A DNA stretch of 64,000 nucleotides from the IMG/VR virus record IMGVR_UViG_3300029911_000026, positions 768 through 64,767 of that record; one strand, written 5' to 3'. The DNA is from a virus (Duplodnaviria; Caudoviricetes). Within the stretch, counting starts at the first letter, position 1, and each line of letters begins with the position of its first letter. The notes beneath the pieces are model-generated. The model was given only the letters and a program-made list of their open reading frames with translations. It was not told the DNA's origin and did no database searches. Positions 41,862 through 44,313 of the stretch are shown here, one piece after another. Made by a program: the position numbers and the translations under genes.

Positions 41862-41934
41862 GGGGTGAGTCTCCTTATGTTCGTACCAAGACCATAGCAG
41901 CATATTGTTAGTACGTCAATGTGGACATTTGGGC

Positions 41935-42207
41935 GTGGTTGTGGATTTCCAGTGGAAGGGGAGGCAAGAGGCGCAAGTCCTCTGTAATCGAACGGATTCG
42001 CCCGGAAAACATGCCGTAGGATGCCCGTGGTGCGGCTAACGCAAGTGGACCTGTGGGGTAGGTATCTTCCAGACGAGAACGCCGCCGGAGACAGTCTCCG
42101 ACGGCGGCCTGAATCTCGTCAGGCTCATGCCAGGGTGTGTGCTGGCGCTCTATGAAGTCTGCGGCACTTCGCCTTTGGCTTTCGCCTACTGCCGCAGTCA
42201 GGCATCT
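41935..42207 (-). ncRNA. Putative structured ncRNA downstream of tRNA-like gene
   Basis: Series of GC-rich hairpins, one GAAA-capped; no convincing ORF. Confidence 0.45.
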
Positions 42208-42301
42208 TGGAGCGGGGTTCCGGGTTCGAACCGGCGGCCTCCGGGCTGGAGCCAACCTTGCGGCTGACCTGACCGACGCTCTACCACTGAGCTACCCCCG
42301 C
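42208..42301 (-). tRNA. tRNA-Gly(UCC)-like RNA with about 19-nt hairpin inserted in anticodon loop
   Basis: GCGGGGGTAGCTCAGTGGTAGAGC 5' end, GGTTCGAACCC T arm, U73-CCA; 94 nt. Confidence 0.7.
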
Positions 42302-42368
42302 GGTAGCGTGGCGGCAACGTTCTGGGCCCAGCCACCACGACTCGTCAACAGTAGCAGGGTCGGGCTGC

Positions 42369-43280
42369 TCAGTCAATGGCATCCTTGGCGAGTAGTTCCA
42401 GCGCCTTCAAGGGGTTTGGGGCCTTGCCGGAATCGACCAGCCTGGAGAGCGCTGCGGTAAGCAGCTTGGCGGTTGCGGCTGGGATGCGGTCGGCGCCGAA
42501 CACGGCTGCGAGCGGGAAGTATTCGCGGTCGCGGCGGGCGGGCAGATACTCCTGCAGGTCGTCCAGATGCCGGCTGAACACGTCGAGCAGGACCATCAGG
42601 GAGGTAGCAGCGTTGCTGACGCCCTTGGATCCTCCAGCCGCGGCCATCAGGTCGAGCCATGAGTCGTATTCGGCGTGGCGCAGCAGCCAGGTCCGGTCGC
42701 CGCTTACCTGCTTCAAGAGACCTTCGATGATCGTCTGCGCGCGTTCGAGCTCGTCCGGCAGGAAATACATCGTCAGGGTCTTGGCCTCGAGCGCTGCCTC
42801 GGAGAAGGCGATCGGGGACACCTTCTCCAGCAGTTCGAGCGTGCGGTCGTCGAGGCCGCAGTAGACTTTCAGATCCACGGTTCCAACCTGCTCGTAGAGC
42901 TTGCGGAGCGTTGCCGGGTCGTCCTGGCCGGTGATGGCGTTGTGGGAGAGCTGAATAGCTATCTTCTGCTCCTCGGTGAGCGGGTCGTGCGTGACCATGA
43001 CCCAGATCTCGTCGAGGCCGGCGGCAATCGCGGCTTTCGTGCGATGGTTCCCGGAGAGGACTTCGTAGACCCATTCGCCAGCTTCCTTGACGCCGAAGGC
43101 GAAGGGAACGGAGCTGAGGCATCCGTCGCGGCGCACGTTGGCGACCAGGAGCTGGAACTGCTCGTGCGTCATGTAGCGCGCGTTCAGCTCGCGGAGGCGG
43201 AGCTTACGCGGGTCGATTTGGACCAGCTTCGTGCTTACTGTTCCGCTCGCTTGCCCTTTGTCGAGAATCGCTTCTTCCAT
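42369..43280 (-). CDS. ParB/Srx-like N-terminal domain protein
   Basis: NARYM....F..LV.N...DG, VLSGNHR..AA, QLSHNAI.GQDD. Confidence 0.8.
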   Translation of the reverse strand: MEEAILDKGQASGTVSTKLVQIDPRKLRLRELNARYMTHEQFQLLVANVRRDGCLSSVPFAFGVKEAGEWVYEVLSGNHRTKAAIAAGLDEIWVMVTHDPLTEEQKIAIQLSHNAITGQDDPATLRKLYEQVGTVDLKVYCGLDDRTLELLEKVSPIAFSEAALEAKTLTMYFLPDELERAQTIIEGLLKQVSGDRTWLLRHAEYDSWLDLMAAAGGSKGVSNAATSLMVLLDVFSRHLDDLQEYLPARRDREYFPLAAVFGADRIPAATAKLLTAALSRLVDSGKAPNPLKALELLAKDAID

Positions 43281-43745
43281 TCCGCAAGCCCCTCCTGGAG
43301 CGTCCATCGTCCATAGTCGGCGAGATAGTTCAGCATGAATCCGCCGGCCGCGTAGCCATTCATCGGGTCGTCGGCATCGATGTTCTGACGGCTGGTGAGC
43401 CGGAACAGGCCGCGGTACTTCATCGACACCGGGCGCTTCGAGAAGGCGGTCGTCGCAACTGCGCTGACGCGGCGCTTGAGCATCTCTTCGGCAATTCCCT
43501 GCCCTTCGCGGGAGAGCGCGGCGTAGAGTACCAGCTTCGCGAGCTTGTCATAGCTGGCCGGTGCAACCGGGAAGTCGGAGAGTAGGTAGACGTAGGAGAC
43601 GCCGTTATCGACTTGGATTGTGGAGGAGGTCGCGTTCGATCGTGAAGTTGCCGGAGCAAGCCACGCGGATGTCGTCGGTCTGCCACTTCTCTACGACTTC
43701 ATGGATGATAGAGAGGACGGAGCTGGGGAGGGAGCCGCGGAACAT
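43235..43745 (-). pseudogene. Internally deleted DNA-modification gene (putative antirestriction adenine methyltransferase type)
   Basis: MFRGSLP...CSGNFTIER N-terminus joined out of frame to YLLSDFPVAP...TTAFSKRPVSMKYRG C-terminus. Confidence 0.65.
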
Positions 43746-43938: not shown

Positions 43939-44313
43939 TCATAGCAACCTCTGTTGTCTGGGCTCGGCTTTGGCCGCTGGGAGCAGCTCGCGCACCGGGA
44001 CGCCAAGCTGCTTCTCGAACCATGCCGCCGCCAGGTGCCGGTGGCAGAACTCGCCTGGACCTTCCCAGCAGAGCAGGATGGCCTTCTCTCCGAGTTCCTT
44101 GGCGATCTTCTTGGCGTCGAGGCCGGCGAGCTGCTTCGTGTAGATTTCAGTGAACTCGGCCTCGGTCATCTCGCCAGCGCGGATGCGCTTGACTGCCCAC
44201 ATGGGCGGAGCGAGAGCGCGGCACTTCCGGATAGGGTCGTAGCCCCTGGTGCCGTTGGAGATGGCGACCGCATCGGGGTGACGGCCAGACGTTTTGAAGT
44301 TCGATGTAAACAT
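43939..44313 (-). CDS. DUF488-family protein
   Basis: AVAIS, LAP.W-like, AILLCWEGPGEFCHRHL; leaderless promoter TTGACG-N18-TAGTAT at 44320-44349. Confidence 0.75.
   Translation of the reverse strand: MFTSNFKTSGRHPDAVAISNGTRGYDPIRKCRALAPPMWAVKRIRAGEMTEAEFTEIYTKQLAGLDAKKIAKELGEKAILLCWEGPGEFCHRHLAAAWFEKQLGVPVRELLPAAKAEPRQQRLL

Follow-up and report, generated by a model that had tools for sequence, protein, structure and literature searches.

What kind of RNA is encoded by a tRNA gene whose anticodon loop is closed off by a hairpin, and what is such a gene doing next to a ParB-like gene in a phage genome? This question is raised by a 64,000-nucleotide (nt) stretch of a virus of the class Caudoviricetes (IMG/VR record IMGVR_UViG_3300029911_000026, positions 768 to 64,767), hereafter the window, in which a 94-nt tRNA-Gly-like RNA gene lies at positions 42301-42208 of the minus strand. 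An earlier note on this DNA had seen in the RNA either a tRNA mimic, acting as a decoy or as a non-ribosomal glycine donor, or a tRNA interrupted by a mini-intron. In our analysis, the RNA falls within a family of tRNA-Gly genes that accompany a DAM-like/GNAT fusion gene and a ParB-like gene, and the reading that we favour, with a probability of roughly 0.6, is that it represents the glycine-carrier tRNA of such a cassette in an extreme non-decoding form, orphaned by the loss of its transferase and drifting.

The gene was recognized by Rfam (RF00005), by ARAGORN and by direct reading, and its 94 nt include an encoded CCA. The Rfam score of 38.2 bits lies above the gathering threshold of 29, with E = 1.8e-4 when the whole window is searched and 1.9e-6 when the search covers 701 nt, and the acceptor, D and T arms form a cloverleaf. 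By direct reading, the 5′ acceptor strand is GCGGGGG and the D arm GCTC-AGTGGTA-GAGC; the anticodon region is TCGGT-CA-[GGTCAGCC-GCAA-GGTTGGC]-TCC-AG-CCCGG, the variable loop AGGCC and the T arm GCCGG-TTCGAAC-CCGGA, and the 3′ acceptor strand ACCCCGC is followed by T and CCA. The intact D arm, T arm and U73-CCA, together with the unusual anticodon region, are therefore as the earlier note had described them, on the minus strand. All elements of a Gly-type acceptor end are present (G1-C72, C2-G71, G3-C70, U73 and CCA). Non-standard pairs at the junction of the T stem and the acceptor stem, also remarked on before, were flagged by Rfam and proved on direct reading to be G7.A66 and G49.A65; a third stem mismatch is U31.C39. 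The folding z-score of the whole RNA is -0.47, a measure that says little for tRNA.

Within the anticodon loop, the Rfam alignment places 28 nt where the model has 9, which corresponds to a 19-nt insert between positions 33 and 34 (42269-42251, minus strand); the GCAA-capped hairpin of about 19 nt that had been proposed, and the 75 nt left on its removal, are both borne out. The insert together with U34 folds into an 8-bp stem containing three G.U pairs and capped by GCAA, with pair probabilities of 0.79-1.0 for the eight pairs. Shuffled sequences were as stable as the real one in 12 of 5000 cases for the 20-nt insert and in 92 of 5000 cases for the 26-nt loop plus insert; the hairpin is not due to chance. 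The UCC triplet at the anticodon position (42250-42248, minus strand) was located by direct reading and in the predicted fold, in which U34 pairs with the first inserted G, whereas C35, C36, A37 and G38 stay unpaired at a normal distance from the 3′ strand of the anticodon stem. The sides UCA and CCAGC face each other across a 3x5 internal loop, with C35 and C36 on its 3′ side; tandem G.A pairs are absent from this loop on direct reading, and a K-turn was rejected. In place of a 7-nt anticodon loop with U33 and a purine at position 37, the RNA thus has a 26-nt region containing an 8-bp hairpin, and since a 19-nt GNRA hairpin separates A33 from U34, the 7-nt decoding loop cannot form.

The ParB-like gene beside this RNA (42369-43307, minus strand) is intact, encodes 312 amino acids (aa) and is recognized weakly by Pfam ParB_N and at 1.6e-58 by PHROG 7405; the tRNA-like gene starts 67 nt past its stop codon on the same strand. 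Remnants of a DAM-like/GNAT gene adjoin it, so that the earlier remark on a nearby ParB/DNA-modification cluster holds. Twelve loci with relatives of the ParB-like gene extend at least 1.5 kb upstream, several of them being copies of one contig, and 11 of the 12 contain a tRNA-Gly(TCC) of ordinary length 1.4-1.9 kb upstream; the tRNA of one (L065) was found by Rfam only, and another (L055) has none. The gene between tRNA-Gly(TCC) and the ParB-like gene encodes a fusion of Pfam DAM-like-phage1 (1e-83) and GNAT-phage-like PF22559 (2.5e-52), and in L003 a DUF488 gene precedes the tRNA.

The DAM-like/GNAT family is large, with 905 cluster representatives at E<=0.001 and 303 at E<=1e-30. We quantified the linkage by a profile search, taking the best 80 of 167 viral loci with a DAM-like/GNAT homolog (33-100% identity). 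A ParB-like homolog lies directly 3′ of the DAM-like/GNAT gene in 76 of these 80 loci, and a DUF488 homolog lies upstream in 28. ARAGORN detected a tRNA within 2 kb in 53 loci, for a total of 54 tRNA genes, all of which are Gly or Gly-like; by locus, the anticodons are TCC in 30, CCC in 11 (one with two copies), ACC in 8 (L130, L131, L140, L177, L179, L181, L189 and L195) and GCC in 1, and the loop has the wrong length in 3. The tRNA lies no more than 400 nt upstream and on the same strand in 48 of the 80 loci, whereas in L140 and L179 it lies 3′ of the ParB-like gene, as in the window. A relaxed scan added six aberrant Gly-like RNAs that ARAGORN misses (L139, L148, L154, L157, L158 and L175).

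The same arrangement occurs in cultured phages. In Mycobacterium phage Taptic, an annotated tRNA-Gly(tcc) abuts a DAM-like/GNAT homolog. In Gordonia phage Jollymon (PV467702.1), the relaxed scan found an unannotated, highly aberrant tRNA-Gly-like RNA (L202:1621-1694) that ARAGORN misses. Its anticodon loop is CCCCCGG and its T loop TAACCAC, the acceptor stem has no mismatches and carries U73-CCA, and gene 29, a DAM-like/GNAT homolog annotated as 'methyltransferase', follows 59 nt downstream. Separately, L185 and L186 (2001-2864) match only the DAM-like part (residues 1-279), with no GNAT part and no tRNA detected, as might be expected if the tRNA were tied to the GNAT domain, although these are only two near-identical loci.

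The window RNA has the features of this family. It lies on the same strand as the ParB-like gene and beside it, the DAM-like/GNAT gene being present there as remnants, and it shares the acceptor strand GCGGGGG with the tRNA of L179. The triplet NCC occupies positions 34-36 in 44 of 47 distinct cassette tRNAs, and UCC does so in the window RNA; 46 of the 47 start with GCG, and every one of the 33 with a terminal CCA has T as its discriminator. Furthermore, the flanks CA...UCC-AG resemble CA-UCC-UG (L059, L174 and L194) and CA-UCC-GC (L176), so that the window RNA reads as a cassette tRNA with 19 nt added between A33 and U34. Judged by position and identity elements, it is a member of the cassette tRNA-Gly family, and it is the most extreme form in that family, being the only insert-bearing cassette tRNA among the loci scanned.

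We then asked what these tRNAs retain and what they have lost. The 47 distinct cassette tRNAs, 44 of them with a 3-nt anticodon, were compared with 76 distinct control phage tRNAs, a small set drawn from three huge-phage tRNA-array fragments and the Ser/Leu/Leu cluster of the window. U33 is found in 37 of 44 cassette tRNAs versus 74 of 76 controls (Fisher p 0.012), a purine at position 37 in 31 of 44 versus 73 of 76 (p 1.3e-4), and GG in the D loop in 20 of 47 versus 74 of 76 (p 2e-12). Moreover, anticodon loops of 5, 6 and 8 nt occur in the cassette, and any of the four bases may occupy position 34, including A, which is very unusual there in bacterial Gly tRNAs. Escherichia coli glycyl-tRNA synthetase (GlyRS) reads G1-C72, C2-G71, G3-C70 and U73 in the acceptor end and C35-C36 in the anticodon. 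Retention of the signals for GlyRS alongside loss of decoding features accords with a tRNA that is maintained to be charged and to pass on glycine, and not to read codons; from their sequences, the cassette tRNAs look like dedicated non-ribosomal glycine carriers.

A natural parallel is found in Staphylococcus, where tRNA-Gly isoacceptors serve the Fem transferases that build the peptidoglycan bridge; these have lost G18G19, and T-arm changes lower their binding to EF-Tu. The loss of the D-loop GG, frequent in the cassette, is common to both groups. The staphylococcal tRNAs, however, keep a 7-nt loop with UCC, whereas loop length and the bases at 33, 34 and 37 differ among the cassette tRNAs, and the window copy has a hairpin in the loop. 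An artificial parallel is provided by engineered 'tRNA scaffold' RNAs, whose anticodon loop has been exchanged for a foreign hairpin: the window RNA, likewise a tRNA body with an extended anticodon arm, would be expected to be processed, stable and non-decoding, but it is a natural RNA with a Gly identity set.

What, then, would receive the glycine? The GNAT protein Mom of phage Mu transfers glycine from Gly-tRNA(Gly) to the N6-adenine of double-stranded DNA; each of the three E. coli isoacceptors can serve as donor, but Gly-tRNA(Ala) cannot, and the authors suggest that the acceptor end is recognized and cite non-ribosomal aminoacyl transfer of the kind described above, and FemX, as precedent (PMC13219725). 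In a comparison of jumbo phages, Mom-family enzymes are treated as users of acyl-CoA, and a tRNA link goes unmentioned in the portion of that text available to us (PMC7824862). An AlphaFold model of the DAM-like/GNAT fusion, built on a 66-sequence alignment (pLDDT 92.8), resembles E. coli Dam over the first half of the protein and many GNATs over the second half; Mom (8bv8_A) is one of these, ranking 37th (E 5.9e-4). The GNAT fold is thus indicated for the relatives both by Pfam (PF22559) and by the model, while the window retains residues 342-464 only. A PDB sequence search gave no match for the DAM-like/GNAT protein, and Pfam gave no match to Mom at E<=0.001; we make no claim of membership in the Mom family, and that the fusion works like Mom is suggested by the pairing of a Dam-like with a GNAT domain and by the linkage to tRNA-Gly.

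The two systems are alike in the GNAT fold, which in the cassette is joined to a Dam-like adenine-binding domain, and in the tie to tRNA-Gly. They differ in that Mom is a single GNAT domain using host tRNAs, whereas the cassette enzyme, a Dam-like/GNAT fusion, has a ParB-like partner and comes with a tRNA-Gly of its own. Moreover, there is no match in sequence, and the gene is broken in the window.

The state of this gene bears on how the window RNA is best read. The remnant of the DAM-like N-terminus, corresponding to homolog residues 1-40, lies at 43745-43626 (minus strand, frame -3; tblastn 58% identity, E 3e-10) and ends at a stop codon; the GNAT remnant, corresponding to residues 342-464 of a 465-aa homolog, lies at 43591-43241 (minus strand, frame -1; 53% identity, E 3e-32), and the first start codon in its frame is at 43483 in the list of open reading frames (ORFs). 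The two remnants are out of frame with each other, and about 300 codons are absent between them, a loss that takes away the greater part of the Dam-like domain and about 60 residues, or a third, from the start of the GNAT domain. No further pieces were found by tblastn in the whole 64.8-kb genome. Likewise, Pfam and PHROG scans of 57 and 49 phage ORFs revealed no other GNAT, Mom or Fem-like gene. With its transferase gene frameshifted and about 300 codons lost, the window RNA is most likely an orphan.

In the model that we favour, host GlyRS would charge the cassette tRNA through G1-C72, C2-G71, G3-C70, U73 and C35-C36, and the GNAT domain would move the glycine onto an adenine presented by the DAM-like domain, much as Mu Mom does with Gly-tRNA(Gly). 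The anticodon, D and T loops would be free to drift because the cassette tRNA is a carrier and not a decoder. The window copy would have kept the tRNA body and the Gly identity set, with C35-C36 single-stranded and the decoding loop closed off, and would now be a non-decoding RNA, perhaps still made and charged, that lacks its enzyme and drifts towards a pseudogene. The fold of the RNA, the linkage, the relaxed features of the family and the broken gene are observations, whereas charging, the passing of glycine to DNA and the orphan status are inferred. Of the proposals made earlier, that of a non-ribosomal glycine donor thus survives in part: a tRNA-Gly family with lost decoding features is tied to the DAM-like/GNAT and ParB-like pair, but in the window the transferase is broken, and a relic is likelier than an active donor.

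Several observations weigh against this reading. On the side of the enzyme, we infer both the chemistry of the DAM-like/GNAT protein and its use of the linked tRNA from the analogy with Mom, and the fold of the fusion is no closer to Mom than to other GNATs. Neither ARAGORN nor the relaxed scan found a tRNA within 2 kb in 21 of the 80 loci, and the small control set limits the comparison of decoding features. On the side of the RNA, all three stem mismatches are confined to helix ends, and the residues of the tertiary contacts are intact on direct reading (U8-A14, G15-C48, G18, G19, G26-A44 and T54-A58). Three of the eight hairpin pairs are G.U, so that the stem forms only as RNA of the tRNA strand. 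Together, the G.U pairs, the confinement of mismatches to helix ends and the intact tertiary residues argue for selection on the RNA and not for decay. In addition, the GNAT remnant keeps many family-invariant residues and an open frame of 151 codons; the deletion may therefore be recent, and an intact enzyme may once have used the RNA in its hairpin form. Finally, the earlier note had named a lack of homologs with a conserved insert as one sign of a decayed tRNA; no homolog with the hairpin turned up in the collections searched, and selection on the hairpin cannot be measured for that reason. All relatives found are distant, those of the ParB-like protein being only 46-51% identical across viral, metagenome and genome collections.

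These points leave some room for a broader proposal, which we advance tentatively: that private, non-decoding glycine carriers serve a DNA-aminoacylating Dam-like/GNAT enzyme in many phages and retain no more than GlyRS and the transferase require, and that the hairpin RNA of the window can be charged, never reads codons and was or is functional. Narrower, and in our view doubtful, is the idea that the RNA is a still-active glycine carrier with an occluded anticodon, in which the hairpin keeps it off the ribosome. Here, G49.A65 and G7.A66 would perhaps bar EF-Tu while GlyRS still read C35-C36 and the acceptor end, and some other transferase, encoded by the phage, its host or a co-resident element, would take up the glycine. 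The hairpin is specific to the RNA strand through its three G.U pairs and far more stable than shuffles; C35-C36 are unpaired in the predicted fold at their native distance from the 3′ stem strand; mismatches stand at helix ends only, around an intact tertiary core. The cassette family tolerates loops of 5 to 8 nt beside intact enzymes, the ParB-like and DUF488 genes of the window are intact, and contigs from other peat runs that cover the RNA have the identical sequence. Against this, the genome offers no candidate transferase beyond the remnant, which is frameshifted and some 300 codons short, and no other GNAT, Mom or Fem-like match emerged from the scanned ORFs. Neither the 80 cassette loci nor two scans of viral contigs by pattern yielded a second such hairpin, and GlyRS would have to face a 12-bp extension.

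Further from the evidence stands the suggestion, made in the earlier note, of a decoy. The RNA would then titrate an anti-phage factor of the host that acts on tRNA-Gly or on its glycylated form, for example an anticodon nuclease or a GNAT toxin. Some phage tRNAs are described as countering defences directed at tRNAs (PMC13096335), and a tRNA-shaped, non-decoding body with a Gly identity set might suit such a role. Nothing in the locus points to it, however; the conserved linkage to the DAM-like/GNAT cassette accounts for the RNA without a decoy function, and an occluded anticodon loop is a poor mimic for an anticodon nuclease. We regard this explanation as improbable.

Equally hard to sustain, and rated marginally lower, is the view that the 19 nt are a mini-intron removed by proteins to give a 75-nt tRNA-Gly(UCC) decoding GGA and GGG. 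Removal in silico leaves the loop CAUCCAG, which is similar to the loops of intact cassette tRNAs but carries A33, as the spliced product would; no excision from the RNA yields a loop with U33. Bulge-helix-bulge introns have two 3-nt bulges on opposite strands with a 4-bp helix between them, usually at position 37/38. Such introns of archaea and eukaryotes, and the group I introns of bacterial tRNAs, resemble the window insert in interrupting the anticodon loop. The insert, however, lies at 33/34, its loop sides are opposed 3x5 with no staggered arrangement of 3-nt bulge, 4-bp helix and 3-nt bulge, and its 19 nt could not accommodate a group I ribozyme core (usually >200 nt), as had been recognized before; Rfam gave no intron match. 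No gene for RtcB, an RNA ligase or a splicing endonuclease appeared in the Pfam and PHROG scans, the phage has structural genes of the kind seen in tailed phages of Gram-negative hosts, and bacteria are not known to possess a tRNA splicing endonuclease; the protein-splicing route of the earlier note finds no support here.

In favour of a mini-intron, short anticodon-loop hairpins occur in other viral tRNAs (for example, L016, L017 and L035, described below), and tRNAs of Lak megaphages, tRNA-Gly(TCC) included, contain short 'enigmatic introns' of unknown mechanism (PMC6784885). The Lak inserts are, like that of the window, short insertions in phage tRNA genes; unlike it, they belong to 540-kb phages with at least 30 tRNAs, have predicted eukaryote-like sites and, in the portions of the report available, no reported link to a DNA-modification cassette (PMC6784885). 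In the literature searched, short inserts in phage tRNAs are reported only for these megaphages, as far as the available parts of the paper and its preprint go (PMC6784885).

The weakest alternative, a class II-like tRNA-Thr(GGU) with a 24-nt variable arm, is the call made by ARAGORN (tRNA-Thr(GGT) with a long variable arm), yet its fold is about 10.6 kcal/mol less stable than the tRNA-Gly-like fold (-26.9 versus -37.5), its loop CAGGUCA has A33 and C37, its acceptor end is of the Gly type and all relatives are Gly, which leaves it with next to no probability.

Searches for the insert elsewhere returned RNAs of other kinds. The exact 19-mer matched viral contigs five times, four times in one protein-coding gene family and once elsewhere, never in a tRNA, and we attribute these matches to chance. 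Among 43 loci of viral tRNAs that share the D arm and have a long anticodon region, none resembles the window insert; the set mixes eukaryote-type introns at 37/38 with long variable arms and with Gly(GCC) tRNAs of huge phages in which a hairpin follows the anticodon. A search for a Gly-type acceptor with a long middle region gave 29 loci, mostly ordinary tRNAs after a chance TAGAGC, or long variable arms. Three tRNA-Gly(GCC) genes (L016:201-273, L017:201-273 and L035:201-273), from very large phage genome fragments carrying 17-21 tRNAs, have a 22-nt hairpin of 9 bp plus a tetraloop directly 3′ of the anticodon; the stems of L016 and L017 differ by compensatory changes, and these represent a separate kind of short anticodon-loop insert. 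Nine tRNA-Gly(TCC) genes from viral contigs of 87-476 kb (L024, L025, L046, L076, L080, L083, L086, L092 and L095) have a normal anticodon arm and a variable region of about 15 nt starting AGGCGAATAG. In addition, six loci (L013, L023, L033, L040, L044 and L053) are viral tRNA-Tyr(GTA) or tRNA-Ile(TAT) genes with short introns at 37/38, two of them from giant-virus records and of eukaryote type.

As to the origin of the insert, the hairpin is unique in the window: no second copy was found with up to three mismatches allowed, and a repeated mobile element was rejected. An attachment or integration site was rejected as well, no integrase having been found among the scanned ORFs. Within 42219-42253 of the window, the 3′ part of the insert region, GGCTCCAGCCCGGA (minus strand), is identical to the T arm, GGTTCGAACCCGGA, at 11 of 14 positions, and the first five nucleotides of the insert duplicate the preceding five (GGTCA GGTCA). 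Both the likeness to the T arm and the short repeat are possible traces of how the insert arose.

The surroundings of the gene contain further structured elements. Between the ParB-like stop codon and the 5′ end of the tRNA-like gene lies a 9-bp hairpin, CGTGGTGGC...GCCGCCACG (42339-42307, minus strand), which the earlier note had also noticed; no U tract follows it, and a terminator scan was empty at this site. Downstream of the gene, a gene-free stretch (41904-42207, minus strand) holds an 8-bp hairpin at 42197-42159 enclosing a GGC-GAAA-GCC mini-hairpin, and a 13-bp hairpin without a U tract at 42106-42080. The intact DUF488 gene, a frequent upstream member of the cassette, lies at 43939-44313 (minus strand; Pfam DUF488 and DUF488-N3a). 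Elsewhere in the window, an ordinary cluster of tRNA-Ser(GCT), tRNA-Leu(TAG) and tRNA-Leu(CAA) lies within the tail gene region (15067-15320, minus strand).

The source record is a complete genome of 64.8 kb (CheckV 100%) with a G+C content of about 60%. Its structural genes are typical of tailed phages of Gram-negative bacteria, and the capsid protein is 50-57% identical to those of Edwardsiella and Burkholderia phages; similar DNA was not found in cultured phages. The phage is present in peat metagenomes, and the sequencing runs listed for it do not include an RNA run. Contigs from four other peat runs are identical where they cover the tRNA-like gene, with thin cover and a comparison reaching 43350: X9 record 25 covers the gene minus its last base, and X19 and X6 cover part of the 5′ end only. 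No variant or insert-free form was seen in these thin-cover contigs.

DNA modification dependent on a tRNA has been demonstrated only recently, for Mu Mom, which draws on host tRNAs. The literature searched holds no description of Dam-like/GNAT fusions linked to tRNA-Gly, although the authors of the two Pfam families may have noted it elsewhere; as far as our searches reach, it is new that a large Dam-like/GNAT family travels with its own tRNA-Gly shorn of decoding features. The copy in the window is mainly of interest as an extreme form and as a cassette caught in decay. The cassette is present in cultured phages of Mycobacterium smegmatis and Gordonia, which makes the idea directly testable. 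If it is true, Mom-like chemistry would extend to a second enzyme architecture, many of the lone tRNA-Gly genes in phage genomes would be explained, and there would be natural tRNAs that are charged but not translated.

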